Part shown: in pieces, positions 5,033 to 45,483 of the stretch
Layout of the letters: the number at the start of each line of letters is the position of its first letter
Numbering within the stretch: the first letter of the stretch is position 1
DNA from: Solirubrobacterales bacterium
Lineage (GTDB): Bacteria; Actinomycetota; Thermoleophilia; Solirubrobacterales; 70-9
Direction of reading: 5' to 3'
Length of the DNA: 64,000 nt
Assembly: GCA_033856175.1 (NCBI GenBank)
Contig: JAWVFK010000018.1
Span: 3,104 to 67,103, forward strand
Notes under the pieces: generated by a model
The model's database searches: none
Told to the model about the DNA's origin: nothing
Seen by the model: only the letters and a program-made list of their open reading frames with translations
Translations under genes and position numbers: made by a program

Positions 5033-6993
5033 CAGCTCTTGCCGTCGCCGCGGCCCGGCGGTGCGGCGCCCCGGCGAGCCCGCCGCTGGCCGCCCCTGAC
5101 CGGTCGCGCGTTCGCGACCTTGCGCTTCGGCGCCTTCGGCCGCCCCGCCGTCTGCAGGAACTTCAGCGTCTGGACGTAGACGAGGTTCTTGTGCTTCTGG
5201 ACGATGTCGGCATCGCGCATCGCCTCGAGGAACTCCTCGGGGCCGTCGAAGTCCCGCACCCTGATGCGAACGCTGCCGAGCCCCTGGGCGACGTGGCTGT
5301 CCGAGCCGGCGCCGGCGACGATCCCGTACTTGGCGGCGAAGCGGACGGCCTCCTCGTTGAAGGCGGTGACCGCGATCCGCGGGTTGAAGACCTCGAGGAT
5401 GTCGATCTCCTCGACGACGTCCAGCAGATGCTCGTAGTCCGGCACCGAGTGGAAGCGGTCGAAGGGATGGGGCATGTAGACGAGCCCGCCCTGGGCGCGG
5501 ATCGCGGCGATCGTCTCGGCCATCGTCAGGCCGCGCTCGATCTTGCGCTCGAGAAAGAGGCCGATCACCTCACCCTGCTCGGCGGTCTTGATCTCCTCGG
5601 CGACGATCACCTCGATGCCGTCCATCCCGGCGGCGATCTCGCGCGCCTCGAGCGCGCCCGAGACCTCGTTGTGGTCGGTGATCGCGATCGCGCCGAGGCC
5701 ACGGTCGCGCGCCGTCTCCAGCAGGACCTCGACGGGCGTCGCGCAGTCGGGCGAGTGGTCGGTGTGCATGTGCAGGTCGACGTCGATGGTTGGCCGCGAG
5801 GCAAGCCGCCGGCGTATGGCGGCGCTGCCTTCGGAGACGTGGCGGCGGCCGACGACGCGGCCGTAGACGCCCTCGAGCTCGTCGGTGACGTCGGACCAGC
5901 TGCGTGAGGCGGCCCGCGAGCCGGCGTCGCGGAGCTCCCGGCGCAGCGCCGGGCTCTCGGCCAGCCGCACGAGCTGGCCGGCCAGCGTGTAGGGGTCGCC
6001 GGGAGGAAAGAGCAGCCCGCGCTCGCCTTCGCCCAGCAGCTCGGCATAGCGCTCGAGGTCGGATGCGACCGGCACGGCCCCGCCGGCCAGCGCTTTGCGG
6101 ATCAGCCCCGGCGCCGAGCGCGGACCGCCCGAGGCCGCGCAGAGGACATCGGCCGATGCGATGAGATGCTCGAGCGGGCCGGCCGCCGGGCCGACGAAGT
6201 CGATCCGCTCTCTGAGGGCGCGGGCGATCCGCGGCGGGGCGACCGCAGGATCGGGCAGCCAGACCGTCGCTCGCCATTCGAGCTCCAGCGGCAGCCGCCG
6301 CAACGCGCGCAGGAACAGTCGCAGCGCGCCGCGCTCCTCCTCGGCGGCGAAGAGGATCTCGAGGCGGCCGTCGTCGTTGCGACGCCGGGGCTCGCTATCG
6401 GCGCCGGGCGGCAGCAGCTCGTAGCCGCCGGGAAAGAAGCGCTCGAGCCGCTCTGCCGTGGTCTTCGAGCAGGCGGTGCGGGCATCGAGCCGGCCGAAGA
6501 AGATCTCGACCAACGGCCGCGCGACCTGGGTCGAGAGCACGCGCTCGGCAGGGTCGTGAAAGGTGCCGACGTTGAGCGAGTGCGAGTGGCGCAACGCAGC
6601 CGCCGAGGTGCTCGGCGCGAACGGCTCGTGGACGTGGACGACATCGATCGCCAGGCTGGCGAGCAGCGTCTCGAGGCTGCGGCCGACATCGATCGAGACC
6701 GAGGCGCCGCGCGAGCTCGAGCCGCTCGGCAGCGACAGCCCGGGGCCGACGCAGACCAGCTGCGGCTTGCCGTCCGCCGGCAGGATCGCGGCTGGGTCGG
6801 CGCCAGCGGCTCGAATCAGCCGGCGCCCTTCGCGGATCTCGGCGCGCGAGTCCGAGGGCGCGACGATGAGGACGCGGTGGCCGCGGGCGGCGAGCTCCGC
6901 CGAGGTGCGCTCGACGAACTCGTTGACCTCGTGCCGGTCCCCCCACTGCTGCGGGGTGACCTGCGCGATCGTCAGGCGGCCGTCGTCAGACAC
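5032..6993 (-). CDS. PimA-like GT4 glycosyltransferase fused to C-terminal PHP phosphoesterase domain
   Basis: The N-terminal ~400 aa parallels mycobacterial PimA (VHVHEPFAPSTS, GTFHDP, EERGALRLF, GGAVPVASDL). The C-terminal IDVDLHMHTDHSPDC..AITDHN..MPHPFD..GSDSH is PHP metal-binding histidine/aspartate signature. The ORF-track start (7758) would overlap ino1, so I take GTG 6993 (VSDDGRLTIAQVTP). Confidence 0.75.
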   Translation of the reverse strand: MSDDGRLTIAQVTPQQWGDRHEVNEFVERTSAELAARGHRVLIVAPSDSRAEIREGRRLIRAAGADPAAILPADGKPQLVCVGPGLSLPSGSSSRGASVSIDVGRSLETLLASLAIDVVHVHEPFAPSTSAAALRHSHSLNVGTFHDPAERVLSTQVARPLVEIFFGRLDARTACSKTTAERLERFFPGGYELLPPGADSEPRRRNDDGRLEILFAAEEERGALRLFLRALRRLPLELEWRATVWLPDPAVAPPRIARALRERIDFVGPAAGPLEHLIASADVLCAASGGPRSAPGLIRKALAGGAVPVASDLERYAELLGEGERGLLFPPGDPYTLAGQLVRLAESPALRRELRDAGSRAASRSWSDVTDELEGVYGRVVGRRHVSEGSAAIRRRLASRPTIDVDLHMHTDHSPDCATPVEVLLETARDRGLGAIAITDHNEVSGALEAREIAAGMDGIEVIVAEEIKTAEQGEVIGLFLERKIERGLTMAETIAAIRAQGGLVYMPHPFDRFHSVPDYEHLLDVVEEIDILEVFNPRIAVTAFNEEAVRFAAKYGIVAGAGSDSHVAQGLGSVRIRVRDFDGPEEFLEAMRDADIVQKHKNLVYVQTLKFLQTAGRPKAPKRKVANARPVRGGQRRARRGAAPPGRGDGKS

Positions 6994-7055: not shown

Positions 7056-8231
7056 CTACTGCTCGGCGCTGACCGGCGTCTCGCTGGCGGCCGGCTGCTG
7101 GGGCGCCGTGCCGCGGGCGTTCTTGGCGATGAACTCCTCGGTGTCGTCGCGCGCCTGCGAGTCGGGCCGCTGGTTGTGCGGCGACTTCATCAGGTAGCTC
7201 GAGGGGCCGTCGAGCTGGCCGGCGACGCCGTTGTTGAGCGCCAGCTTGACGATCCGGACCGCGTCGATGACGATGCCGGCCGAGTTCGGCGAGTCCCAGA
7301 CCTCGAGCTTGAGCTCGAGGTTCAGCGGCACGTCGCCGAAGGCCCGGCCCTCGACGCGGATGTGGGCCCACTTGCGGTCGGTCAGCCACGGCACGTAGTC
7401 GGAGGGGCCGATGTAGACGTCGTCGGCCGGCAGCTCGTGGTCCATGATCGAGGTGACGGCGTTGGTCTTCGAGATCTTCTTCGACTCGAGCCGCTCGCGC
7501 TCGAGCATGTTGAAGAAGTCCATGTTGCCGCCGACGTTGAGCTGGCTGGTGCGCTCCATGCGCACGCCGCGGTCGGCGAACAGCCGCGCCAGCTGGCGAT
7601 GGACGATCGTCGCGCCGACCTGGGACTTGATGTCGTCGCCGATGATCGGCAGGCCGGCCTCGCGAAAGCGGTTGTCCCAGTAGTCCTCGCGGGCGATGAA
7701 GACGGGCAGGCAGTTGACGAAGCCGACACCGGCGGCGAGGGCCTGTTCGACGTACCACTTGGTCGCGTCCTCGGAGCCGACCGGCAGGTAGCAGACGAGG
7801 ACATCGGTCTTCGTCTCCTTGAGGATGCCGACGATGTCGGCGGTCTCGCCCGGCGCCTTGGTGATCTTCTGCTTGAGGTACTTGCCGAGGCCGTCGTGGG
7901 TCATGCCGCGCTCGACCCTGACGCCCAGCGACGGCACCTCGGAGAAGGTGATCGTGTTGTTCTGGCCGGAGAAGATCGCCTCGGAGAGGTCCTTGCCGAC
8001 CTTGTCGACGTCGATGTCGAAGGCCGCGGTGAACTCGATGTCGCGGACGTGGTAGCCACCGAGATCGACGTGCATGAGACCCGGGACCTGCTCGTTCGGG
8101 TCGGCGTCGCGGTAGTACTGGACGCCCTGCACGAAGGAGCTCGCACAGTTGCCGACGCCGACGATGGCGACGCGGACCTTGCCGTCGTCAGCGCGCATGC
8201 CGTTGCTTGATACGCCGTTTGTCTTGCTCAT
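7056..8231 (-). CDS. ino1: myo-inositol-1-phosphate synthase
   Basis: 391 aa. [22 protein letters not shown] (NAD fold), ..LPVGSE.. and [11 protein letters not shown].. are typical bacterial/archaeal Ino1. Confidence 0.9.
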
Positions 8232-8291
8232 GCGGAAACAGTTCCTCCTGGTTCAGTTCAGGTTCGTAAGCACACCCGCCCCCAAGCGGGG

Positions 8292-8948
8292 TTACACGGA
8301 GCGCTCCGCCTCGATCAGCTGGCCGCGGACGTGCCAGACGCGCTGGAACACGGTAACCGCTGTCAGAGCGGCCATCACGTAGATCGCCGGCGCAAGCAGC
8401 TCGAAGCTGCCGAGAGAGGCTCCGCGGGCGAAGACCAGGCCGATCGAGAGCACGACGACCCGGACCGGCCGCGTGGCGAGGCCGACCTTGCACTCGACGC
8501 CGAGCGCCTCGGCGCGGGCGCGGGTGTAGGAGACCATCAGCGAGCCGAGCGTCGCACCGACGCACATCGCCGCGGCGAACTCGTCGCCGCGGGCGGCGAA
8601 GTAGGCGGCAACCGCGGTGAGGACGATGCCCTCCTCGACGCGGTCGAGCGTCGAGTCGAGAAAGGCGCCGAAGAGCGAGCCCTTGCCCGACATCCGCGAG
8701 TAGCGGCCGTCGAGGGTGTCCATCACCGAGCCGACGATGAATGCCACCCCGGCGAGGAAGAACAGGCGCTCGACGACGAGGACGGCGGCGGCGGCGTTGA
8801 GGACGAAGCCGGTCAGCGAGATCGCGTTGGGGGTCAGTCGCGACTCGATCAGCCGCTCGCGGGCGAGCGAGCGCAGATCCTGGCCGTTGCGGCGCGGCCG
8901 CTCGGCGTCGCGACTGCGTGGAGCCTGTGAGGGAGCTGAGGTTGCCAT
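8292..8948 (-). CDS. pgsA: CDP-alcohol phosphatidyltransferase (phosphatidylinositol-phosphate synthase-like)
   Basis: DTLDGRYSRMSGKGSLFGAFLDSTLDRVEE matches D-x2-DG-x2-AR-x8-G-x3-D-x3-D. Multiple TM helices. Directly upstream of ino1 in the same orientation. Confidence 0.8.
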   Translation of the reverse strand: MATSAPSQAPRSRDAERPRRNGQDLRSLARERLIESRLTPNAISLTGFVLNAAAAVLVVERLFFLAGVAFIVGSVMDTLDGRYSRMSGKGSLFGAFLDSTLDRVEEGIVLTAVAAYFAARGDEFAAAMCVGATLGSLMVSYTRARAEALGVECKVGLATRPVRVVVLSIGLVFARGASLGSFELLAPAIYVMAALTAVTVFQRVWHVRGQLIEAERSV

Positions 8949-8963
8949 CGGCGGGGGCCAGCC

Positions 8964-9743
8964 TCAGGCGGCGCTGGCGCGGACCTCGGGCTGCCGCCAA
9001 GCCCACGCCGCCGGCCTTACCCGGGCGAGCAGTCGATGGGCGGCGAGGGCTGCCACGACGGCGACGACGGCGCCGGCGGCGGCGTCGAACCAGAAGTGGT
9101 TTGCCGTGCCGACGATGACGAGGAATACGAGGGCCGGATACAGGGCCCAGAAGGCCTTGCTGAGGCGATGGCGTGAGATCCGGAAGCCGGGGACGCCGAT
9201 CATCAGCGAGAAGGCGATGTGCATGCTGGGCACGGCGGCATAGGGATTGACGAGTACCTTGAGCAGGTCGGAGTCCTGGTTGACGTTGGAGATGTCGTGG
9301 ATCGTGTCGACGAAGCCGAAGCCGGTCGTCATCCGCGGCGGGGCGACGGGGAAGAGCGTGTAGCCGACGAGGGCCAGGCCCATCGCCACCATGAACATGT
9401 TGCGGACGAAGTAGAAGGCGTCGTTGCGGAAGAGATAGAGCCAGAGCAGGAACGAGGTCGTGACGACGAAGTGCGTGTTCAGGTACATCCAGTTGAGCGT
9501 GCTGACGAGCCAGTGCTCGGGCAGCAGCAGCTTCTGCAGGCCGGGCTCGAAGAAGGTCCCCGTCGCCCGCTCGAGGTCGATGACCTTGGCGGTGTTGGCG
9601 AAGGCGGCCGAGGCCTTGCCCTCGGTGATCCCGCGCACGAACTCGTAGCCGAGGTCGGCCATCACGAACAGGCTCAGCTGACGGGCGGCGTCGCCCCATC
9701 CCTTGGGCAGACGCGCGCCGATTCTCGAGACTAGACGCCGCAC
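8964..9743 (-). CDS. PAP2 superfamily membrane protein, sphingomyelin/IPC-synthase-like
   Basis: Polytopic membrane protein with AAVPSMHIAFS (S-x-H) and GTANHFWFDAAAG (H-x3-D), the C3/C4 motifs of phospho-headgroup transferases of the PAP2_C type. First gene of the inositol-lipid operon. Confidence 0.6.
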   Translation of the reverse strand: MRRLVSRIGARLPKGWGDAARQLSLFVMADLGYEFVRGITEGKASAAFANTAKVIDLERATGTFFEPGLQKLLLPEHWLVSTLNWMYLNTHFVVTTSFLLWLYLFRNDAFYFVRNMFMVAMGLALVGYTLFPVAPPRMTTGFGFVDTIHDISNVNQDSDLLKVLVNPYAAVPSMHIAFSLMIGVPGFRISRHRLSKAFWALYPALVFLVIVGTANHFWFDAAAGAVVAVVAALAAHRLLARVRPAAWAWRQPEVRASAA

Positions 9744-34751: not shown

Positions 34752-34824
34752 GCCCCCGTAGCTCAGTTGGTAGAGCAGCGCCCTTTTAAGGCGAAGCGCG
34801 CCGGTTCGAGCCCGGCCGGGGGCA
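34752..34824 (+). tRNA. tRNA-Lys (TTT)
   Basis: gcccccgTAGCTCAGTTGGTAGAGCa..CTTTTAA anticodon loop (TTT)..gccggTTCGAGCccggc cgggggc a; hand-folded cloverleaf, 73 nt, no encoded CCA. Confidence 0.85.
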
Positions 34825-35048
34825 CTTGCAGCCGGGGCGGATTCGGACCACGACCTTGGGATCGTGAACTGTCCAGACCATGGCAGTCTCAGTTCGCTCA
34901 AGCGCCACCAATACTTGTCTGCGTGGCCTCGTGCGAGGCTTTTGCTTGGCGAGATCTCCGACATGGGGTCACGCAGAAGGGGAGGAACTGCAGATCTAGG
35001 CGCATCCGGGACCACCGGCACAGGCGCAGCTGGCTGTCGACCCAGCCG

Positions 35049-36401
35049 CTACCAGTAGATAGCGACGATCTCCGAGTCGATCAGGTGCTCCTCTCCCTCG
35101 TCGCCTCCTTCGCTGGCGGTGGCAAACAAACCGTCCTGGGAGGCGCTGGCCCTATAGCCGTGCTCGGACATCAGGCTGTCGCGCAGGTCTGAAAGGCGAG
35201 CTCGATCGAGCTGCCGCCCGGTCCGGTCCTGGACACGCTTGGTGATCGAGGCGAGGGTTTTTCGCTGCTGCTCGACGGATGAAAAATCAGGTTCAAGGGC
35301 GTCCAGTCCCACCGCCTCTGTGTCTTCCTCGGACCACTCCGTCTCCGCCTCGGCGGCGACGGCTTCGGCGTACTCGGCGATGAGCGCGCGCCCCTCCCCC
35401 GCCTGCGGGGATTCGGAGCCGGCTGCTCCCCTGGCTACGCCGGCGAGGAACTCCGGTCCCACGTCATTGATTGCGGCGGCGACGCTCGGGACGAATCGCT
35501 GGAGCAGGTCCACGACCTTCACGGGGTGCCAGCTATCCCTAAGTCCGTCCGTATTGAGGCGGAACATCACGAAAAATCTCGAGTCCGAGAAGAGGACGCG
35601 GCGCAGGTCACGCCAGAACAGCTCCGCTTCCGCGACCGCGACGACGTGCAAGGGCTCGCGATCAACATCCACGCCGTCATCGAGCTTGTCGAGGAGCTCC
35701 TTCGAGGCGAGGAACTCCCGGGCGTCGATCACGATTCGCTCGTATCGCGCGGACTCACCCCGTATCGGGACCAGGCCTGAAAGGAGCTCGTCGAAGACCC
35801 TGTTGACACCCCGGGCCTGAGCCACGTCCCGCGGGTCCATGGTGAAGAACTCCGGCGCCTCCTCGAAGAAACCGAGCATCGTGGCGATCATCAGGCTCGC
35901 CTGAAAGATCGACTCGGCGTCGAGGGTCACCTCGAGCTCGAGGAGTTCGCCACGAGCGAGTTTGGCGGCGTCGACCAGATGGGCCGTCTTGTCGTCATCG
36001 CGAATCTTTCTCAGATCGTCGAGCGACGCGGCTGCGGGGACGTCCCCCGCCCCGACGCTGTCGTGAATCCGCATCTTTCCGGTCTCATACTCGACGAGGT
36101 CCTTGAACGACGCTTGGACATTCGCTTTGCGGACTACCTGAGTGCCGCGCGTCCGCGAGCCCTCGAGCTGGGAGCGCAGGCCAGCGCCGCCGAGGTGCGT
36201 GTTCACGCCGACGGAGGCTCCAACCGAGCTGCGGGTGGTCTCTGAATCCGTGTCGATCAGCTCGGTTGGGATCGCTCCCTTGCGGGAGGCCAGCAGGCTA
36301 TAGACGCTTACCTCATCGAGATAGACGAACTCACGTCTGTCGCCTTTGGGCTGCTCCTGGCCCCGCACCTTCGCCATCATCCTTTTGATCCACTTGATCA
36401 C
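35049..36401 (-). CDS. hypothetical 450-aa protein, translationally coupled partner of the AAA+ ATPase
   Basis: GTG 36401 overlaps the AAA+ stop (GTGA) and has GGAGGA 6 nt upstream; ATG 36380 is an alternative. The ORF-track start 36572 lies inside the AAA+ gene. No catalytic motif recognised. N-terminal REFVYLDEVSVYSLLASRKG, a Gly/Ser-rich stretch, and an acidic C-terminus ending IVAIYW. Confidence 0.7.
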   Translation of the reverse strand: MIKWIKRMMAKVRGQEQPKGDRREFVYLDEVSVYSLLASRKGAIPTELIDTDSETTRSSVGASVGVNTHLGGAGLRSQLEGSRTRGTQVVRKANVQASFKDLVEYETGKMRIHDSVGAGDVPAAASLDDLRKIRDDDKTAHLVDAAKLARGELLELEVTLDAESIFQASLMIATMLGFFEEAPEFFTMDPRDVAQARGVNRVFDELLSGLVPIRGESARYERIVIDAREFLASKELLDKLDDGVDVDREPLHVVAVAEAELFWRDLRRVLFSDSRFFVMFRLNTDGLRDSWHPVKVVDLLQRFVPSVAAAINDVGPEFLAGVARGAAGSESPQAGEGRALIAEYAEAVAAEAETEWSEEDTEAVGLDALEPDFSSVEQQRKTLASITKRVQDRTGRQLDRARLSDLRDSLMSEHGYRASASQDGLFATASEGGDEGEEHLIDSEIVAIYW

Positions 36402-37633
36402 TGTTGGTCCTCCGTGCTTCGGCGGGGCGCCTGTTCCAGCTGGCGTGCGCGGCTGTCTCGAACCCGTTCGTAGCCACCCCAGCAATCCTCTGTCTTCAGC
36501 TGCCCCCGGCCATCCGCGACCGCGAGCAGCGCCGCCTCGTTCCAGATCGCCGCGAGCTGAGCCGAGGTCCACCCTGCCGTCAGCCTCCCCAGCTCGTCCA
36601 ACGGCGGGCTATCAGCGACGTTGAGGCGCCTAGACGCCGCCGCGAGGATATTCTCGCGGTCCTCGTCCATCGGGTAGGGGAACCGAATCTCCCAGTCGAA
36701 GCGCCCAGGCCGCCGCAACGCCTTGTCGATGTCGTCGACCCGGTTGGTCGCCGCTACGACGATGACCTTGTCATCGCGCGTGAAGCCATCCATCAGCCCG
36801 AGCAGCTGGGCGACGACGCGGCGCGAGCCCTCGTAGGACTCTTCTCGTCGGCCGGCGACGCTATCGATCTCGTCGAAGAAGATGATCGAGCGGTCCTGCA
36901 TTGCGGCGTCCTCGAAGACGCGCCGGAGAATCGCCTCGCTGTCTCCCTGCCATTTGCTGAAGATCTGCGGCCCGTTGATCACATAGAAGGCGGCCCCCGA
37001 CTCCTTGGCGATGATCCGGGCGAGCATAGTCTTCCCGGTACCCGGGGGCCCCGTCATTAGCACCCCCCTTACCGGACGGGCTCCCGTCTGCTTGAGGAGT
37101 GCCTTCTTTCCCGGAGAAAGCTCGATCAGCTCCTTGGCTCGGTCGACGACGCTCTCCATCCCGCCGTAGTCATCGAACGTCTCGGTCAGCTCGCTGGGAT
37201 CGACCTTCAGATGCTCGATCGACACACCATCGTCGTCCCTGAATAGCGAGATTGACTCGCGCGTTAGAACGGCGACGACCTCGCCGTCCTTTAGCTCGAC
37301 CGTGTTTCCGACCTCATAGTCGGTGTCATTGGTCGGGGTGAGCACGAGGCTCCCGTTCACCGAGACGATGGTTTTCTCGTCGCCTTTGGTGCGAATGACC
37401 CCAACGTCCGGCGTGTCGGGCCAGAGCCGATCGGGCGCAGGAACGGCTATGGACTCGTCGGGATCAACTAATAGGAGGTCGCCGACCTCGAACTCAAACG
37501 GTGTCGCAGACGCCTCGAGGGATGCCACCTTGCCTGAGCGAAATTCGACGAAGAGCTCGTAGCCAGCGGCTTCGACCGCCCGAACCCTCGCCAGCGCTCC
37601 CTCTGCAGTCCGTGTCGCGCGCACCGCCTCCAT
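36398..37633 (-). CDS. classical-clade AAA+ ATPase (Cdc48/FtsH-like single AAA module) with unassigned ~190-aa N-domain
   Basis: Walker A GPPGTGKT, Walker B IIFFDEID, second region of homology ATNRVDDIDKALRRPGRFD; 411 aa. Confidence 0.85.
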   Translation of the reverse strand: MEAVRATRTAEGALARVRAVEAAGYELFVEFRSGKVASLEASATPFEFEVGDLLLVDPDESIAVPAPDRLWPDTPDVGVIRTKGDEKTIVSVNGSLVLTPTNDTDYEVGNTVELKDGEVVAVLTRESISLFRDDDGVSIEHLKVDPSELTETFDDYGGMESVVDRAKELIELSPGKKALLKQTGARPVRGVLMTGPPGTGKTMLARIIAKESGAAFYVINGPQIFSKWQGDSEAILRRVFEDAAMQDRSIIFFDEIDSVAGRREESYEGSRRVVAQLLGLMDGFTRDDKVIVVAATNRVDDIDKALRRPGRFDWEIRFPYPMDEDRENILAAASRRLNVADSPPLDELGRLTAGWTSAQLAAIWNEAALLAVADGRGQLKTEDCWGGYERVRDSRARQLEQAPRRSTEDQQ

Positions 37634-37721
37634 CAGAGCGCTGGCCCCAGACTAGACCGTCGACCCGCCATAGTCGCAGCATCGATCCCATGGTCGGGCA
37701 CAGATCGGAGGACGGCGGTCA

Positions 37722-38000
37722 CTAAATGTGGGCGTTGAGCCACTGCCATTGTTGCTCGGTAAGCCACCCCTGGTACGGCCGGGTGACCTTGCAGATAAAG
37801 AGCTTGTCATTGGCATCGATCAGGCTATTGCTGCGCAAGGCATCGACCCACTGCTGCGGAGCGGACGAAGTCTCCACGAACCACTGCGAGTAAAGCGGCC
37901 GGATGAAGGCCGATGCATGCTTCTCGATGTAGTTCTTGACCTTCGTGTAGCTAGACGGCCGCTCGAGGCCGCTCAGGTCGTAGGAGATGAGTAGGACCAT
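37722..38000 (-). CDS. hypothetical 92-aa protein, possible Cas2/VapD-like ferredoxin fold
   Basis: MVLLISYDLSG..KVKNYIEKHA..SQWFVETS..DKLFICKV mimics the Cas2 beta1(YD[IVL])-alpha-beta-beta pattern. Perfect AGGAGG 5 nt upstream of the ATG. Fold assignment is by eye only. Confidence 0.55.
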   Translation of the reverse strand: MVLLISYDLSGLERPSSYTKVKNYIEKHASAFIRPLYSQWFVETSSAPQQWVDALRSNSLIDANDKLFICKVTRPYQGWLTEQQWQWLNAHI

Positions 38001-38009
38001 GACCTCCTG

Positions 38010-38216
38010 CTACTTGTGACGGCGGTTGTATGGCGAGCGGTTGGGGGGCTTCAGCGAGATCTTCTTCTCGGAGGCCTTGGCCTGGACGGCCGGCTTGGTG
38101 CGGCCGAGCTTGAGGCCGATCACGCCGGTCGGAGTGTTCCCCTTCGCCAGCTTGCGGAGCTGGCGGACCTGGGCAGGGGTCCAGAGCTTGCCGGTGTTGC
38201 GGGTGGATTTGGGCAT
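38010..38216 (-). CDS. small basic Myb/SANT-like HTH protein (68 aa)
   Basis: KLWTPAQVRQLRKLAKGNTPTGVIGLKLGRTKPAVQAKA looks like a W-x2-x-E/Q..L..G..IA..LGRT Myb-like repeat, with a basic tail. Its stop is 9 nt before the next gene. Confidence 0.55.
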   Translation of the reverse strand: MPKSTRNTGKLWTPAQVRQLRKLAKGNTPTGVIGLKLGRTKPAVQAKASEKKISLKPPNRSPYNRRHK

Positions 38217-38255
38217 TGACTTTCGCGCCTTTCTCGCCTGACAGCTGGCGAATTC

Positions 38256-38331
38256 GAGTTCGTTATGACGAATCGTAGCAGGTTTTTCGATGTATGCAAG
38301 AATGGCGAAGAGGAGTTCGTGATGACGAATC
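38256..38331. promoter_or_regulatory. duplicated operator-like element in divergent promoter region
   Basis: gagttcgtTatgacgaatc (38256-38274) and gagttcgtGatgacgaatc (38313-38331): a 19-nt direct repeat with one mismatch. Each copy contains the inverted repeat TTCGT-N4-ACGAA. The copies are 57 bp apart. Confidence 0.55.
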
Positions 38332-39176
38332 AGGTCAACGAGCGGCAGTTATCTGTCTTCGAGCAGCTTCGTGACTCGGAGCCGAGCCTGGCCGACACCG
38401 AAATCGTGCGCAGGCTCTGCGAGCAGCTTCTGGATGAGGCCGACGTGCGGCCGCCGGTCCCGGTCGAGATGCTTGCCTCGCTGCGCGGGATCGCCAAGGT
38501 GCAGTCGGACGATCAGCCCTACGCGGGAATGTTGAGTCCTGAGGACGGGCGACTGGTGGTTACGGTCAGGCGAGGAGACGGGCACCGGCGCCGGCGTTTC
38601 ACCGTCTGCCATGAGGCGGCGCACACGCTCTTTCCGGGCTTCAGCGAGCGCCGCCAGTACCGCTGCAACGGCGAACGGACGTGGACCGAGAAGATGTGTG
38701 ACCTAGCGGCCGCAGAGCTGTTGCTCCCGAGGCGCTTCTTTGAGGCCGACTTGAGGCAGGCGGGCTTCGGGCTTGAGGCCGTAGAGGAGCTCGCCCGCGA
38801 CTACCAGGCGAGCATCGAAGCGACGGCGCGGCGAAGCGTCGCGCTCTGGAGCGCGCAGGAGGCGATGCTGATCGTGCTGCGCGCCCGTCACAAGCCGTCG
38901 GAGGCCGGACGCGAGGACGAGCTGCCGCCGAAGCTCAGGGTCGAGTATTCGTTCGGGCGCGGAGATTGGCCCTTCGTACTGCGCCACAAGTCCGCGAGCG
39001 CGAGCGGGCTCGGACGCGCGCTTGAGGGGGAGATCCTGGACGAGATCAGCGAGATCGACGAGCTCTGCGTCGGTTCGGCCGGCCGGGTGCGGGTCCAGGC
39101 ACGGCGCTACGGCGCCGATGGACGTGTGATCGCCTTGATCAACAAGACCACCGACAACGCAGGAGGTGAAGGTTGA
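38322..39176 (+). CDS. ImmA/IrrE-family zinc metallopeptidase (DUF955-like) with C-terminal extension
   Basis: HEAAH (HExxH) in RFTVCHEAAHTLFPG followed by AAELLLPRRFF, typical of ImmA/IrrE. ATG 38322 has GAGGAG 6 nt upstream. The ORF-track ATG 38265 is in frame and cannot be excluded. Confidence 0.8.
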   Translation: MTNQVNERQLSVFEQLRDSEPSLADTEIVRRLCEQLLDEADVRPPVPVEMLASLRGIAKVQSDDQPYAGMLSPEDGRLVVTVRRGDGHRRRRFTVCHEAAHTLFPGFSERRQYRCNGERTWTEKMCDLAAAELLLPRRFFEADLRQAGFGLEAVEELARDYQASIEATARRSVALWSAQEAMLIVLRARHKPSEAGREDELPPKLRVEYSFGRGDWPFVLRHKSASASGLGRALEGEILDEISEIDELCVGSAGRVRVQARRYGADGRVIALINKTTDNAGGEG

Positions 39177-39580
39177 CCACGAAGGAGAGCGTGGGGAGCC
39201 GGATTAAGAAACGTCGCGAAGAGAAGGGGATGAGCGCAACGAAGCTAGCTGAGAGGGCCGGCATCTCGAAGAGCTATCTATCGGAGCTCGAAGGCGCGAA
39301 CGGCGGGGCAAAGAAGCCATCGGCTGAGCTCCTGTATGAGATCGCCAGCGCGCTCGGCGTGGCGATGTCCGACCTACTGGGAAGGCCGATCATCAACAAT
39401 GGGGCCAGCAATAAAACGCGGCCGCCGTCGCTGATCAAGTTCGGGAAGAAGATGGGACTTCCCGAAGCGGACCTGCAGATGCTCGAGCAGATCCAGTTCC
39501 GCGGCGAGCCGCCCCAGACGCCGGAACGCTGGAGCTTTATCTACCAGGCGATCAAGGGCAGCGCCTCGATGGACGCGTAA
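39173..39580 (+). CDS. XRE-family HTH transcriptional regulator
   Basis: IKKRREEKGMSATKLAERAGISKSYLSELE is the Cro/C1-type HTH. TTG start overlapping the ImmA stop (TTGA); 135 aa. Confidence 0.85.
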   Translation: MTTKESVGSRIKKRREEKGMSATKLAERAGISKSYLSELEGANGGAKKPSAELLYEIASALGVAMSDLLGRPIINNGASNKTRPPSLIKFGKKMGLPEADLQMLEQIQFRGEPPQTPERWSFIYQAIKGSASMDA

Positions 39581-39851
39581 TCATCTAAGGGTGAGGAACC
39601 GCGCCGAATGTGCGAAGGCTCCTGGTTTCCGGGCCTTTGCGAGTAAGCCATGCTCAGACCTGACCGAGCGGGTCTTGCGGTGCCGCACCGCCGGCTAGGG
39701 GATCCGCAGGCGCCATCCAGGGACGTCGACGACCTTGTGAGCACCCCGCTTCCGGGGCCGCTTAAGTGGCGGGGACCCGCTACGTGTCTCGGGGCGACGG
39801 ACGGCTAGTCGATGGAGTGCGTCTACTCGCGCGTAAGCCTTGTTGACGCGC

Positions 39852-40685
39852 TCACGCCAGATTCAGAGCGGCTTTCAAACCGCTCACCACTCGGTACATG
39901 TGCTGGCCAACATTCTTTCGCAGCCGAGCCTCGGCGGCAGGCGTTCGCTTCTGGTGCGCCGCGCCAATACGATCCTTGTTAATTCGGCTTAGCACCTGCG
40001 CGAGCACGGTATCCGGGTGATTCGGCGTCTGGATGTTTGAAAACGCAATGGCCAGCCGACCTAATGACATCCTGTCGATCGTCTGATTAGTCAGAGCCCG
40101 ACGCCGGCCCGCCTTATTCAGGACCGTAATCCTGCCATCCGCAATCCCTTTCCGCAAGTACTTTGCACTCTCGATCTGCAGAACCTGACAGGCATCCTCG
40201 AACCCTTCGCGCCATTGTGATCGGTCGAATTGTTCATAGACCGGGCCAAGGAGCCGTTTGAGTTTCTTCGGGAGAGAGCCACGCACGGGAAGCTCAACGT
40301 TTACCGCAAGATCGCGTGCCACCAGCGCTTCCCGAACACCGTGCTTATCCGAGACACACACTCCTACGCCCATCTTCTGGAGACGGGCGTCATCCTCATT
40401 GCTGCGGAGAACGGAATCTGGCATTGCGAGCACGATTCGTGTGTCAGTCGTGCATGACCGACCGAAGCGAGACCATTCCTCAGCTCGCTCCAGCGATAGC
40501 TTGCCAGTCACTTCGACAAACACGCGGGTCGGCGGCCTGCGACATCGTAGAGTCGGGGTGTACGGGTATGCCGGATCGGCCGGTTCAGCTTTAACCGAAT
40601 ACCCATTGTCCGCATACCACGATGCCACGGCCTCGGCATGCTCCAATAGCTCTTCCGGAACCGTCAGAAAGCCGTGTCCGGCCAT
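39852..40685 (-). CDS. hypothetical 277-aa protein; N-terminal alpha/beta domain plus C-terminal helical domain with HEPN-like Rx4H
   Basis: The ORF starts 4 nt after the ParB-like gene's stop. R239-IGAA-H244 (NKDRIGAAHQKR; nt 39954-39971) fits the HEPN Rx4-6H motif near the end of an all-helical region. The N-terminal strands (TLRCRR, RVFVEVTGK, RIVLAMPD, VGVCVSD) suggest a nuclease-like alpha/beta fold (weak). Confidence 0.55.
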   Translation of the reverse strand: MAGHGFLTVPEELLEHAEAVASWYADNGYSVKAEPADPAYPYTPTLRCRRPPTRVFVEVTGKLSLERAEEWSRFGRSCTTDTRIVLAMPDSVLRSNEDDARLQKMGVGVCVSDKHGVREALVARDLAVNVELPVRGSLPKKLKRLLGPVYEQFDRSQWREGFEDACQVLQIESAKYLRKGIADGRITVLNKAGRRRALTNQTIDRMSLGRLAIAFSNIQTPNHPDTVLAQVLSRINKDRIGAAHQKRTPAAEARLRKNVGQHMYRVVSGLKAALNLA

Positions 40686-40689
40686 CGGA

Positions 40690-41631
40690 TTACCGCTTCA
40701 GAACTTTAGCGATCACGTGTTGCAGCTCTTCCAACATGTTGCGAAACTCATCATCCACTTCGAACGACCGCTCCAGTTGCGCGTGGAGGCGGGTCAACAG
40801 TCTCGAGACAAGCTGCTGCGACCCGTGCTGATAGTCGATCCCTTCGACAGTGGACTCGAAGGCGCGTTTGATCGTGAAGCGCGGTTCCGTGATCAACCGT
40901 CGCGTAACTTTGCGTGCTGTGGCGGCCGAGACCTGCTCACGATCAACGGCACGACCAATTCGCATGAGCTGGCGGGGCTCCACCGTGTTGGTCTCGGTCC
41001 GATCCTTGAACTTATCCACTAGCGCCCTGCGAAGCTGCTCTTCTTCATCGCGGTTAATGATCTCCCGGCTACGAAGTGCAGCTGCTCCCTTACTCGCCTC
41101 CAACACATGATCAACAGTGAGGCTCTGCTGTGAGCGTGGCAGCTCCAGCTGGGCCATCAGTTCGTTGTGGTACTCGTCAGGCAGGGCCAGAAGCTGTCGG
41201 AGGCGACGTACCTCGCCCCGTGAGATCGAAGCGATCTGGGCCAATTCCTTCTCGCTCGGCTTGCGGCCCTGCCGCTGAGCGTATTCGTGCTCAAGCTCCT
41301 GCAACTTGTAGGCGGTCGGCAGAGGGTCCCAATCCTTGCGAGCGTTGTGGATCGCGAACATCATCATGATGTTCTGGAGCCGATCGGGCTCGGCTTGGAC
41401 GACGACCGGGATGCGGGGCAGTCCGAGCTTCAAGGCACATCGCCAGCGACGCTCTCCGTCGAGTAGGACATGTCTCCTGCCCTTCTCGAAGACACTGAGA
41501 GGCACGAGGACTCCCTGCAGCTTGATGCTGTCCTCAAGCGCTTGAAGCTCAGCCTCATGAAAGATGAGCCGAGGGTTATCCGGGTTCGGATCGATGTCCC
41601 TCGGGGCAAGAAGAGTCTGCGAGCTAGCCAT
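40690..41631 (-). CDS. ParB/Sulfiredoxin-like N-terminal-domain protein with helical C-terminal extension
   Basis: IDPNPDNPRL..LEDSIKLQGVLVPLSV..LLDGERRWRCA carries the ParB-box GxRR motif; 313 aa. No partition partner (parA) is nearby. Confidence 0.8.
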   Translation of the reverse strand: MASSQTLLAPRDIDPNPDNPRLIFHEAELQALEDSIKLQGVLVPLSVFEKGRRHVLLDGERRWRCALKLGLPRIPVVVQAEPDRLQNIMMMFAIHNARKDWDPLPTAYKLQELEHEYAQRQGRKPSEKELAQIASISRGEVRRLRQLLALPDEYHNELMAQLELPRSQQSLTVDHVLEASKGAAALRSREIINRDEEEQLRRALVDKFKDRTETNTVEPRQLMRIGRAVDREQVSAATARKVTRRLITEPRFTIKRAFESTVEGIDYQHGSQQLVSRLLTRLHAQLERSFEVDDEFRNMLEELQHVIAKVLKR

Positions 41632-41718
41632 ATCGCGACCCGCTCAATGCCTCCGCGCAGGCCGATAATCGAGCGCCCTCCATCCAGCCAGAGAGGCCAG
41701 AAGTCCTTTGCAGGGACC

Positions 41719-41731
41719 TCAAATGATTTGA
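41719..41731. promoter_or_regulatory. perfect AT-rich palindrome upstream of dam-like gene
   Basis: TCAAAT-g-ATTTGA at 41719-41731, 14 nt before ATG 41745. It overlaps tgataaat (an extended -10-like element) at 41729-41736. Confidence 0.35.
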
Positions 41732-41744
41732 TAAATGCAGCACC

Positions 41745-42626
41745 ATGTCGATTTCCTTGCCCTCAGCCGACGCCGACCAGCGTCACGATATCCGGAAGCC
41801 ACCTGCTTATCAGATACTCAAGTGGATCGGCAACAAGCAGCGCTTTGCGGCACTCATCGCAAGGAACCTGCCCGCCGAGTACGGCCGCTATATCGAGCCG
41901 TTTGTGGGGACGGGGGCCGTGCTTGCAGCGATGCAACCGGAGAAGGCGGTCGCCGGGGATACGCTCAAACCGCTGATCGATCTTTGGAAACTGGTGCAAA
42001 ATGACCCTGACGAGCTAGCCGCCCACTACAAGATCTGCTGGGAGGCCCTGCTGTCGCATGGCAAAGCAGCATTCGCCGAGATCCTAAGCCGCTACAACGC
42101 GGAACCAAACCCAGGGGATTTGCTGGCTCTCAGCCGGTCTTGTTATGGCGGGGTCGTGCGGTTCACGAAGAACGGGACAATGAGCACGCCGATGGGACCG
42201 CACCGCCCAATCGACCAGATGCGGCTTAGGGAGCATCTCTATGCGTGGCAGGAGCGCGTGTCCGAAACTAAGTTCAGATGCCAGGACTACTCGGTGAGCC
42301 TGGCAGATGCCGCGGCAGGCGATGTCGTCTATTGCGATCCTCCATACGCCTATAGCCAGGCAATCTTGTACGGGGCGCATTCGTTCGACCTCGATGCACT
42401 CTGGGCGAGCATCCAGACCACCGTTGATCGTGGCGCATTGGTGGCCGTATCGATCAATGGCCACCGTAGAAATGGAAAGCTCAAGCTATCTACCCCAATC
42501 CCCGACGGGATCTTTCAGCGGGAGATGCTTATCGAGCGAGGGGGTTGCATGCTCCGGCGCTTCCAGCTAGCGGGCAAGACAGTCGCAGGTGAGCACGTAA
42601 CGGATCGTCTGCTCTTTAGCTGGTAG
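41745..42626 (+). CDS. Dam-type (D12 class) N6-adenine DNA methyltransferase
   Basis: ILKWIGNKQ (K-W-x-G-x-K), motif I EPFVGTGAV, motif IV DPPY (VYCDPPYAY); 293 aa. Confidence 0.88.
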   Translation: MSISLPSADADQRHDIRKPPAYQILKWIGNKQRFAALIARNLPAEYGRYIEPFVGTGAVLAAMQPEKAVAGDTLKPLIDLWKLVQNDPDELAAHYKICWEALLSHGKAAFAEILSRYNAEPNPGDLLALSRSCYGGVVRFTKNGTMSTPMGPHRPIDQMRLREHLYAWQERVSETKFRCQDYSVSLADAAAGDVVYCDPPYAYSQAILYGAHSFDLDALWASIQTTVDRGALVAVSINGHRRNGKLKLSTPIPDGIFQREMLIERGGCMLRRFQLAGKTVAGEHVTDRLLFSW

Positions 42627-42816
42627 CCACCGCGACGCCCGGGCGCTTTTGGAGGGCGACCGGGGCTCTGTACAGGTCTTGCGGCGATCATCGAGTACAC
42701 CCTCGGCCCCGCGTTGCGTGAGGCTGAAGACTTATGCCCGTACCGGGCCGTCGCGGCCTTTGCCGGGGTTACAGCTTGCAAGGTGAGTACGGCGGCTGAG
42801 CCGGTCGGTCTCGTAC

Positions 42817-43983
42817 CTACCGATTGCCCTTGGCGCGGTTGTGTGTCACGCACAGCATCTCGCAGTTGGCGAGATCCGTGTCTCCGCCCTTCGACCAGGC
42901 CGTCACGTGGTCGGCGTCCATCTCGTCCTGCTTGTAGATACGCGTCTTGTTGGCGCTGTCACTGATGGCGCATAGCGGGCAGTTCGACCCGCCGTCGACC
43001 GTCGCCTTCTGAGTCTGCTGCTCGTAGGCAGCCCGCTTCGTGTTGTCGTCGAACAGCCGGACCGCCAGCAGCTGCTTGTCCTTCTTGCCGCCGAGCAGGT
43101 ACTCGTAGATCCCCTTGATGCTGATCACCGCCGGGTCAGCACGAAGCGTATCGACGTCGGCGTCGATCGCCGCCGCGTTGTACGAGGTCGAGTGGTACGT
43201 CTCGTACAGCCGTCCCCACTCCAGCCCCCGCATCTCTCTGTCGGGTGGGCGCGTGAAGACACTGCCGATCCAGTCGATGACTGAGGTGAAGTACGTCTTC
43301 AGGCCGGCGATGTCGCCATCCTGGCGGTGCTGCGCGAGGTAGGCGTCGACGCTCGCCCCCTGGGAGGCCGAGGCCCAATTCAGCGCAACCTCCAAGACCT
43401 CCTGCCGTTTGGGGTCGCCCTTGATGTAGGAGGACCACTTCTGCATGTTTGCGTTCTGCGAATTGCTGAATTCGGCCTTTGCCTTCGTGATGAACGGCCC
43501 GGAGTAGATCGCGTTGAGCACTTCCTGACGGTTCAACGGAATCCCCGCGATGTTAATCGTCTGGAACCAGTCCTTGATCTCTTTCTCGTCGCCCCGGCAG
43601 TGCCATACGAGCAACTTGCTTTCCATGAGCTTCTGCTGCACCTCTCTCGGTAGTGACGAGAACGTTTGCTCCTTGCCATCGACGCGGATCGCAAACTTGC
43701 CGGTGACAAACCGCCCGATGCTCGTGATTCTTTGCTGACCGTCAAGGACCTCCAGACGGTCGCCGACGACGTTGAAGTAGATCAGGCCGATCGGGTAGCC
43801 TTTGAGCAGCGACTCGATTACGGAGACATCCCTCCTTCCGTCGTTGTAAATGTAATTGCGCTGGTACTCGGGCTGGATCACGAGCTTGCCGGCCAGACCG
43901 AATAGCCCCTTGCCCTCGAGCTCGTTGTAAACGAACCCCTCGACAATCTTCTCGACCGTGTAGGGGTGGAGGTCCGTCTTCAC
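42817..43983 (-). CDS. DUF262 (GmrSD N-domain/ParB-like NTPase) - HNH endonuclease fusion
   Basis: [11 protein letters not shown] and DGQQR are DUF262 signatures. The C-terminal [28 protein letters not shown] is an HNH with a Cys pair. The GTG start overlaps the upstream MTase stop (GTGA). Confidence 0.82.
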
Positions 43984-45281
43984 GAAGCGCCCCTCCGACG
44001 GATGAACAGCCGCTGGTAAGCAGATTGGATCACGTGGCCTTTATCGTTGATGAAGTAGTTCTTCTTACCGTCATTCATGGCAAGGTTCGCGTTCTCGTTG
44101 GTCTTGCTCCCCGACGAACCAGTTGGCGTGCCGTCCTGGCGCATTTCCCGGTAGTCATCGTACTTTTTGAAATCCGGAACTTCATCGTGACATCCGCGCT
44201 GGGTCGCTCCGAGGATCTCGAACTGGTCGGGATCATGCTTATTTAGGAAGGTAATCGGCACGCCAATGATCCCGTCGTAGTCGCTGGGAATCGCGTCGCT
44301 GAACGGAACTTCTATGGCGTCATAGTTGTCATACGCCCTGTACCCGATACCCCGAACCTCCTTGTGCTTGGAGAATTTCTTGTTGTCGGCCATCGACATG
44401 AGCTGGAGCGGTTCGTGTCGACGGCCGTGGTCAATGTTGGTAAACCACTGGACGCCGGAAACCCGAATCATGCCCTCGCGCCGGTCGGTTGCGGCCGCCG
44501 TGTCCTCATAGGGACTCCCAAAATGGGTCGCATTTCCTGGGAACCCCTTGCCAAGCCACATCCGGCTCTGCTGGATGAGGGGGAAGATGTCTGAATACGT
44601 GATTGCGTTCTGATGGCCAATAATTGCGAACTTTGCACCGCCCTGAATGATCCACTCGACGAAGTGCCGGAAGAGGCTGAACGGAGGGTTGGTGGTGACG
44701 ATATCGGCCTCGTCCCGCAGTGCTGTCACTTCCTCGCTACGAAAGTCGCCGTCACCTTCGAGGTAGTCCCACCGGAGGTCGTCGATGTTGATGACCTCGT
44801 CGTCATTCATGTCCTTCCTCTCCAAGACGAACTTCTTGCCGTTAGTCCGTGTCTTGGTGGCGTCGAACTTTGCGTCCTCTGTCTCAAACAGCGTTGGCGC
44901 GTAAAACTCCCCAGCCGGGTGGCTGTCGGGCGCATATGACGTCGAGATCAGTTTCTTGAGCCCGAAGTTTGTGAAGTGGAGCGCGAAGAACTTGGTGAAG
45001 TTGCTCCACTCCGGATCGTCGCACGGCAGCAGGATCACCTTGTCACGAAAAACAGCCGGGTCGTATTCAATGTAGGCGTTCATCTCGCGCTCGACGTCAG
45101 CCCACTGGGTGTAGAACTCGTCCTTCCTGGCAGCCTTCGCCGCGTTTAAGCGGCGCCCCTTACCCTCGCTTGCTGTCGTGGAATGCACGCGCCCGACGAT
45201 AGTGGAACGGGGGGACGTGATCGGCAGGTTCTGCAGGGAGCATTGCTGCACGCTCTTATGGCCGAGCGTGCACGCACTCAC
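43980..45281 (-). CDS. N6-adenine DNA methyltransferase, EcoRI-methylase-like
   Basis: KDEFYTQ near the N-terminus and catalytic TNPPF ([11 protein letters not shown]). Lowest GC of the window. The true start may be downstream of ATG 45281 (for example the in-frame GTG near 45187). Confidence 0.75.
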
Positions 45282-45483
45282 TGCTCGAAGCTGCGTCTGA
45301 TCAGCGGTCAGAAGTCGACGTCGCCGGCCGAACCGAGTGGACGGCCGAAGTCGGACCGCCCCTCCAGCAAGCCGATTTCCTCAACCTCAGCGAGGCGTCG
45401 CCGGTTGGTCACGCCCTCTGCCGACTCTCGTCAGGCGGCTCCGCCGAAATCGGAGACCTCGCGTTGAGTTCGTTGCTCGCCTC

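Follow-up and report, generated by a model that had tools for sequence, protein, structure and literature searches.

We describe here a three-gene unit in a 64-kb window (64,000 nt of contig JAWVFK010000018.1, from a metagenome-assembled genome (MAG) of the Solirubrobacterales; coordinates refer to this window unless a locus is named). The unit consists of a gene for a ParB-like protein of 313 amino acids (a.a.), a gene for a 277-a.a. protein that we call X, and a gene for a D12-class adenine DNA methyltransferase. The three genes are inherited together in bacteria of at least six phyla, and we consider it probable that they form a restriction–modification-like (R–M-like) defence module, which combines a methylase, a ParB-type switch that binds nucleoside triphosphates (NTPs) and an effector, X, that joins a restriction-endonuclease fold to a HEPN domain. 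The genes and the features discussed below are as follows (HTH, helix-turn-helix; pLDDT, predicted local distance difference test).

41745-42626, (+): D12/Dam-family N6-adenine DNA methyltransferase, 293 a.a., divergent from the ParB gene
41632-41744: divergent intergenic region of 113 bp between the ParB gene and the methylase gene, presumed promoter region
40690-41631, (-): ParB-like protein, 313 a.a., with a ParB N-terminal NTP-binding domain, an HTH and a helical C-terminal region of ~110 a.a.
41377-41607, (-): ParB N-terminal (CTPase-fold) domain, residues 9-85 (Pfam ParB_N)
41440-41457, (-): GERRWR box of the ParB-like protein (D58-G-E-R-R-W63 invariant in 17 orthologues)
41182-41259, (-): ParB HTH, residues ~125-150, aligned to the HTH of solved ParB chains and to TIGR00180
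39852-40685, (-): X, 277 a.a., candidate two-domain effector, its ATG 4 nt past the ParB stop codon TAA
40323-40658, (-): N-terminal alpha/beta domain of X, residues 10-121, modelled as a PD-(D/E)xK, Hjc-like fold
40164-40178, (-): position of the helix-2 motif E170-x3-R174, where the window X reads Q170...A174
39954-39971, (-): R239-I-G-A-A-H244, candidate catalytic motif of the HEPN domain, at the C-terminal end of helix 3 (R239 and H244 in 113/113 homologues)
39867-40268, (-): C-terminal four-helix HEPN-like domain of X, residues 140-273 (separate domain model, pLDDT 96.8)

Conservation of the three-gene unit

Neighbourhoods were gathered around X homologues, GTDB representatives and ParB orthologues, and were annotated with hidden Markov models (HMMs) built from the loci themselves. 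The resulting set holds 23 distinct intact loci, the window counted, from Actinomycetota, Acidobacteriota, Methylomirabilota, Bacteroidota, Planctomycetota and Myxococcota. In all 23, X directly follows the ParB gene (with gaps of -1 to 21 nt), and look-ups anchored on ParB also always recovered X, which supports ParB–X as a conserved functional pair. A D12-class adenine methylase gene is adjacent to the pair in 22 out of 23 loci: in 19 it is co-oriented and upstream, in two divergent (the window and locus L028) and in one convergent (L029).

The methylase of the window matches Pfam MethyltransfD12 (3.4e-32), NCBIfam TIGR00571 dam (136.5 bits; cut-off, 114.85) and PADLOC MTase_II (1.1e-49), its translation has the motifs FxGxG (EPFVGTG) and DPPY, and it is 53% identical to the methylase of L028, which is linked to the closest relatives of the window's ParB–X pair. 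The methylases of the collection fall into three lineages, all above the Pfam D12 cut-off: the window type shares 28% identity with a type of ~300 a.a., and a type of ~410-440 a.a. is unalignable to either by BLAST. Neighbour-joining trees of ParB, X and the methylase are largely congruent (with one apparent displacement, L006), including the clade of the window, L028 and L029, where the orientation of the methylase gene differs. With an adjacent methylase in 22 loci and largely congruent trees, the unit of inheritance is therefore methylase, ParB and X; it is an R–M-like unit, with the methylase genetically linked to and co-inherited with a putative restriction component. The initial annotation of this DNA, made from the sequence alone, had placed a 313-a.a. 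and a 277-a.a. open reading frame (ORF) 4 nt apart on the (-) strand, and had read them as a two-gene unit of a sensor and an RNase effector. Their coordinates, lengths and spacing are as it gave them and the pairing is borne out by the neighbourhoods; the unit, however, has three genes rather than two, hence its R–M-like character.

A few loci deserve separate mention. Conexibacter sp. DBS9H8 has the three genes as a collinear operon (CP097128, about 1,638,300-1,641,400). In L030 the public gene call skips a 289-a.a. D12 methylase ORF (5098-5967) upstream of ParB and has a 68-a.a. gene on the opposite strand instead; methylase linkage would therefore be under-counted if gene calls alone were used. 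L016 (5032-10820, from an Actinomycetes MAG) carries a decayed copy, in which ParB is split in two and X is intact. Behind this copy, in tandem, lie a second methylase of the long type (7181-8425) and a divergent ParB paralogue (8468-9418; ParB_N 4e-18, HTH_ParB 1e-4); the ORFs after the paralogue, in the position of X, looked Mrr-like by eye but have no Pfam match, and this second module is not used as evidence here. L016 may represent an effector swap. A metagenomic protein of 420 a.a. (P0201) is a direct fusion between the N-terminal half of a D12 methylase of the short type and X minus its first ~40 residues, and is probably a deletion or an assembly chimera that removed the ParB gene. In three loci a 296-a.a. 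Mrr_cat (Type IV restriction) gene lies divergently upstream of the methylase (L003, 5047-5940; L008, 4587-5477; L009, 2691-3581), and it is 62% identical between these loci though their methylase lineages differ.

Domains of the ParB-like protein and of X

The 313-a.a. protein matches Pfam ParB_N over residues 9-85 (E 9.6e-15) and NCBIfam TIGR00180 (parB_part) over residues 3-166 (2.9e-21; 76 bits, cut-off 58), and its best PDB sequence matches are solved ParB/Spo0J/Noc chains, which align with residues 11-161, i.e. the N-domain and the HTH. Besides the GERRWR box, the motifs NPxNPRLIF and SIxxQGxLVPL are invariant in the 17 orthologues, and the nucleotide-binding apparatus looks intact by these motifs. 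Box III is a variant, FAIH(N/H)xRxDW: in a by-eye alignment of the same orthologues against the B. subtilis motif (the canonical ENxQR, with a catalytic Glu), the position of that Glu is held by an invariant histidine (His95). The C-terminal ~110 helical residues are conserved among the 17 orthologues and unrelated to anything identified. Identity of the orthologues to the window copy is 54-61% in the loci compared and reaches up to 83% among metagenomic orthologues. PADLOC gives only partial matches to this protein (E at least 0.007), including a weak MTase_II match to the N-domain.

By these sequence matches the ParB-like protein is of the canonical CTPase-plus-HTH type and not of the DndB/DUF262 type, the kinship proposed in the initial annotation. 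The ParB N-terminal domain with its DGERRWRCA box had been called correctly there; what was described as a long helical tail does include a helical C-terminal region, but begins with a ParB-type HTH DNA-binding domain. NTP specificity and hydrolysis of the ParB-CTPase fold are not predictable from sequence, and orphan ParB-CTPase proteins are common on mobile elements (PMC12704722). The protein has none of the usual partition context, as had also been noted at the outset: the deviant Walker-A motif of ParA, KGGxGK[ST], is not found in a six-frame translation of the 64-kb window, no neighbourhood table of the loci contains ParA-type Pfam families, and the inverted repeats between 39500 and 42700 are short and imperfect, with no parS-like site or operator found near the module. 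Promoter and terminator scans were at chance level (a sigma-70-like match on the (-) strand, 41751-41723, is no better than those in shuffled sequences), and the density of GATC (9-10 per kb in the island around the unit, the module and the rest of the window alike) is uninformative on specificity.

Homologues of X number 135 in a word-indexed search and 336 clusters at 50% identity in an exhaustive profile search; among the best 150 of the 336 clusters most members have ~270-280 a.a. and one architecture, and the remainder are shorter fragments and the 420-a.a. chimera. X has no above-threshold match in Pfam, NCBIfam, PHROGs, PADLOC or PDB sequences, its homologues carry no Pfam domain, and no description of the family was found in open-access papers and preprints. 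Orthologues in the loci compared are 41-53% identical to the window copy. Among 113 aligned members, whose mean column identity is 53%, only 13 columns are invariant; R239 and H244 are two of these. The AlphaFold model of X made with the family alignment (pLDDT 94.7, predicted template modelling score (pTM) 0.83) has two domains.

The N-terminal domain is modelled as alpha-beta-beta-beta-alpha-beta (helix 11-26, strands 30-33, 46-50 and 53-59, helix 65-76, strand 82-89), and its PDB neighbours in Foldseek all have the PD-(D/E)xK fold: SPO1766 (3dnx), Hjc (2eo0 and 4tkd), the Bax1 nuclease, SfsA and AF1548, with probabilities of 0.98-1.0 (1.0 for 3dnx, 0.99-1.0 for Hjc), E-values of ~0.01-0.1 and TM-scores (target) of 0.4-0.5. 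One family member also reaches an E-value of 0.013 against the AHJR-like restriction endonuclease (REase) family of Pfam. These models and matches support a Holliday-junction-resolvase-like restriction-endonuclease fold for this domain, in agreement with the alpha/beta nuclease-like domain that had been suspected from alternating short hydrophobic strands.

The C-terminal domain is very probably a HEPN domain, as the initial annotation had proposed from the motif R239-IGAA-H244, which maps exactly to nt 39954-39971. This assignment, made with high confidence, rests on the invariant Rx4H, on an Ex3R motif in helix 2 of most family members, on the insert that follows helix 2 and on fold matches, of which HEPN RNases are the best. 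As described for the HEPN fold (PMC3710099), Rx4-6H closes helix 3 or opens the loop to helix 4, helix 2 carries a conserved acidic residue (often as Ex3[KR]), and helices 2 and 3 are separated by an insert. The AlphaFold layout of the domain (helix 1, 140-154; helix 2, 158-182; insert, 183-222; helix 3, 223-244; helix 4, 249-273) matches this published topology helix by helix. At least one Rx4H is expected by chance in a protein of the composition of X with P=0.48 (20,000 shuffles), and therefore the motif alone is no evidence; its weight comes from conservation. Around it, N236 (110/113), D238 (102/113) and K246 (100/113) are conserved, and E252, R256 and G260 are near-invariant; the Ex3R of helix 2 is present in ~95% of the family (E170 in 108/113, R174 in 105/113).

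When the C-terminal domain was searched against PDB folds, HEPN chains accounted for 22 of the top 50 matches with the highest TM-scores (0.45-0.57; other helical bundles, 0.15-0.45); these chains include HepT/MNT toxins, AF_0298, TT1696, SsR10, Csm6 and Csx1. A profile search of the domain against PDB returned nothing, and no curated HEPN family was matched significantly; the HEPN family Hypoth_Ymh (PF09509) appears below threshold in three out of 56 domains (E 0.0095), with the match examined covering helices 1-2. A Foldseek search of the domain against viral structures was uninformative, as was an hhalign comparison of its profile with a HepT-like sequence from L031 (probability 0.03, for one sequence only). 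A recurrent weak match to HipA_C on the first HEPN helices (12/113, best E 0.004) was taken as noise.

Proposed mechanism and alternative explanations

The best-supported reading is that of an R–M-like module, which may act in defence or in addiction. In such a module the methylase would mark host DNA, and the ParB-like protein would be a DNA-binding switch or clamp, gated by NTP, that engages foreign DNA without the mark and forms a complex with X; the genes of the two are tightly coupled. X would be the effector, probably a dimer through its HEPN domain, with the invariant Rx4H site cleaving RNA; its endonuclease-fold domain would either cut DNA by means of a non-canonical site or serve as a module for binding DNA or a partner. 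Phage or plasmid DNA that enters the cell would, as the outcome, be restricted or provoke an abortive response. What we infer is that ParB and X form a complex, that unmethylated DNA is sensed, that X acts as an RNase or a DNase, and that immunity results. A more specific version, which we offer tentatively and regard as doubtful, is that a ParB-type CTP/NTP switch has been recruited as the sensor: it would clamp DNA that lacks the N6-methyladenine mark of the linked methylase and license X, with RNA cleavage (abortive infection) instead of, or besides, DNA cutting.

Several observations weigh against this module, or against parts of it. The weakest link is the recognition step. No 8-mer is common to more than four out of 20 upstream regions (those of the window and 19 other loci), and the HTH segment G139-EVRRL is invariant in all orthologues compared, whichever methylase lineage they are linked to. 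With a constant HTH and no shared DNA site found, the model does not account for the reading of methylation status; either one motif is written by all three methylase lineages, or the HTH contacts DNA without sequence specificity or has another target. The methylase itself is missing from the neighbourhood of the pair in one locus (L002, myxobacterial).

For X, neither domain has a significant (E<1e-3) fold or profile match, and in the PDB fold search the C-terminal domain had no match with E<1.3. Residue 240, after the motif arginine, is I in 56/113 and V in 52/113 homologues; a polar residue (N, D or H) at this place is a typical, not obligatory, feature of active HEPN domains, from which the X family deviates. 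In the window copy and its three closest relatives the helix-2 Ex3R is replaced by Q170/A174, a change that is confined to the window subclade (four to five sequences) and could mark an attenuated or rewired variant of X. This subclade is also the one whose methylase is not co-oriented.

In the N-terminal domain, a by-eye alignment that presumes the motif order of Hjc puts T45 (102/113) at the position of the canonical catalytic D and a variable residue (position 60) at that of the lysine of (D/E)xK, with the Glu kept as E58 (106/113). The fold is therefore supported, whereas a canonical PD-(D/E)xK active site in X is not. Four residues of the N-terminal part (E34, R50, D81 and D125) are invariant in the 113 homologues and suggest a conserved function, either a non-canonical site or binding. 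Finally, X has no match at E<=0.1 in PADLOC-DB 2.0 and neither X nor the ParB-like protein matches it convincingly, in keeping with the earlier statement that the pairing is not a recognised system.

An alternative, which we think improbable, is a toxin–antitoxin or addiction system, in which X would be a HEPN RNase toxin, the ParB-like HTH protein its antitoxin and autoregulator, and the methylase a frequent but functionally separate passenger. The tight coupling of ParB and X in 23/23 loci would fit such a system, and so would the HEPN toxins that are common in toxin–antitoxin systems, the HTH that antitoxins often carry and the methylase-free pair in L002. It agrees poorly, however, with a methylase that is adjacent in 22/23 loci and has largely the phylogeny of the pair even where its orientation differs, with a protein of 313 a.a. 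and a complete ParB NTP-binding domain, which is unusual in an antitoxin, and with the lack of a shared operator among the upstream regions compared.

Genomic contexts of the unit in the other loci bear on a second alternative. The neighbours include genes for Mrr, ParE/Phd, VapB, HepT, a STAND NTPase, MmeI-type R–M and integrases, and genes of type IV secretion systems (T4SS) and conjugative elements; such neighbours are typical of defence islands and of mobile-element cargo, and the three-gene unit is usually found in genomic islands. The unit could serve an integrative or conjugative element in its maintenance, regulation or establishment, with ParB as a KorB- or partition-type regulator, the methylase protecting element DNA from restriction in the recipient, and X as an accessory; we give this a low likelihood. 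It would be consistent with a ParB protein of the canonical N-domain-plus-HTH type, with the frequency of orphan ParB-CTPase proteins on mobile elements (PMC12704722), with L001 and L006, which adjoin genes for a T4SS coupling protein, a relaxase, SSB and an integrase, and with L004 and L028, which adjoin integrases. But element genes are missing from the 6-8 kb flanks examined in L030, L031 and the window, ParA is absent from the window and the loci, no conserved parS- or operator-like site was found, and X has the hallmarks of a nuclease and an RNase. Moreover, among 50,697 phage and 72,556 plasmid records, X has no tblastn match and the ParB protein no full-length orthologue, only partial matches to partition ParBs (26-37% identity).

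The remaining alternative, a remnant of a phage ParB–terminase (ParB-Tls) packaging locus whose Dam-type methylase modifies phage DNA during packaging, would account for the weak matches of the ParB protein to ParB-like families of PHROGs and has a precedent in the Dam-type methylases beside ParB genes of phage ParB-Tls loci (PMC4738411), but is very improbable, given that none of the neighbourhoods contains terminase or phage structural genes, that X is without matches in PHROGs and in the phage records, and that the best phage ParB matches have 31-37% identity over less than half of the protein. The initial annotation had listed a Dam-associated phage module among the findings that would speak against defence. 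The Dam association has turned out to be real; without a terminase and with no phage matches of X, it is therefore not that of a phage packaging locus, and the association of the methylase argues for self/non-self marking and not against defence.

Although Pfam, NCBIfam, PHROGs and PADLOC have no model for it, the X family comprises 336 clusters at 50% identity from soil and sediment phyla. ParB-CTPase proteins that occur as orphans, without ParA, are common and mostly have no assigned role, and the module supplies one with an obligate partner and a methylase context. If a HEPN RNase is the output of methylation-status sensing, discrimination of the R–M type and abortive infection would be joined in one operon; a ParB sensor feeding a HEPN output would extend the ParB clamp to a new role and give methylation-based discrimination a new output. 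If the unit is an ordinary R–M variant, several hundred pairs of a 'hypothetical protein' and a 'ParB partition protein', which are now mis-described as chromosome-partitioning genes, would receive a new annotation. The compact three-gene unit is easy to clone and test.

The window island and comparison with known systems

In the window, the unit lies in a low-GC island of 10.7 kb (34752-45483; 59-64% GC, against ~70% in the rest of the window), bordered by tRNA-Lys (34752-34825) on one side and thiS/thiG (from 45484) on the other. No integrase was found in the island, nor was an att-type flanking direct repeat, which was also looked for. Its other genes include:

up to 36572, (-): DUF6414 gene (no PADLOC match)
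36398-37633, (-): IetA-like AAA+ ATPase
within 35049-39580, (-): two small ORFs of 68 a.a. and 92 a.a. (the latter phrog_1090/Cas2-like)
38265-39176, divergent from the four-gene (-) cluster: CapP-like M78 peptidase (PADLOC capP, 2.6e-26)
39173-39580, divergent from the four-gene (-) cluster: CapH-like HTH protein (PADLOC capH, 4.2e-16)
42817-43983: GmrSD_N(DUF262)-HNH protein (PADLOC REase_II, 8e-86)

The CapP/CapH genes and the four-gene (-) cluster (the 68-a.a. ORF, the 92-a.a. ORF, the AAA+ ATPase and DUF6414) look like a separate, DNA-damage-regulated candidate defence system. CapP/CapH (38265-39580) were considered as regulators of ParB–X and rejected: they are convergent with X and divergent from the AAA/DUF6414 cluster, and none of the other loci has them. 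On the other side, the GmrSD_N-HNH gene overlaps that of an EcoRI-like adenine methylase (Pfam, 1.2e-112) by 4 nt, both within 42817-45281, so that a ParB/Srx-fold nuclease, as the restriction partner of a methylase, adjoins the ParB module. An island with CapP/CapH-like regulators, an IetA-like ATPase and a GmrSD_N-HNH protein with an EcoRI-like methylase is counted as context for the reading of the unit as a defence module.

HEPN domains fused to, or in operons with, REase, ParB and methylases in R–M contexts are a described theme (PMC3710099), and ParB–methylase fusions have been described as well (PMC5512222); the kind of system is therefore already known. Neither PADLOC 2.0 nor the open-access papers and preprints searched gave the X family, its obligate ParB partner of the canonical type or the three-gene architecture.

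The unit resembles classical R–M systems with an NTPase subunit (Type III; LlaJI/McrBC-like Type II/IV hybrids) in that a methylase is linked to nuclease-fold and NTP-binding, DNA-handling proteins, and in being a co-inherited unit in islands and mobile elements. Its NTPase, however, is ParB-type (CTPase-fold) where theirs is a helicase or an AAA+ GTPase, and its effector adds a HEPN domain and is without the canonical PD-(D/E)xK residues; no target-recognition domain is identifiable. Systems of the GmrSD/BrxU/SspE type (a DUF262 ParB/Srx-fold NTPase with an HNH or DUF1524 nuclease) likewise couple, in defence, a nucleotide-binding module of the ParB/Srx superfamily to a nuclease. They are, however, single polypeptides of the DUF262 branch, modification-dependent or sensing phosphorothioate (PT), and without an HTH, whereas the ParB protein described here has an N-domain and an HTH, is encoded by a separate gene and is paired with a methylase that is predicted to be protective. 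The GmrSD_N-HNH gene of the window island (42817-43983) is of this type and lies at a distance of 1.2 kb.

With the canonical CTP-dependent clamps (ParB, Noc and KorB) the ParB-like protein shares Box I of the N-domain, the GERR box, the HTH and a TIGR00180 score above cut-off. It differs from them in the invariant His that replaces the Glu of Box III, in ~110 C-terminal residues unrelated to anything identified, in having no ParA or parS-like site that could be found, and in being followed in every case by a gene for a protein with nuclease and RNase folds.

HEPN RNases in R–M contexts (PrrC, RloC, Ymh/PF09509, DUF4145 and AHJR-REase-HEPN fusions; Anantharaman et al. 2013) are similar to X in combining an Rx4H HEPN domain with an REase-fold domain and in their linkage to methylases, and X shows weak sequence echoes of the Ymh and AHJR-like families. 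X is nevertheless below every family threshold, has a hydrophobic residue after the Arg and has an obligate ParB partner. Phage and plasmid ParB–methyltransferase fusions (e.g. the B. cereus BCE_0392 type) also couple a ParB fold to an N6-adenine methylase, a likeness matched by the weak MTase_II match of the ParB N-domain in PADLOC; in the unit described here, by contrast, ParB and the methylase are encoded by separate genes, ParB is extended by an HTH and a long tail, and the effector-like gene is an obligatory third member.

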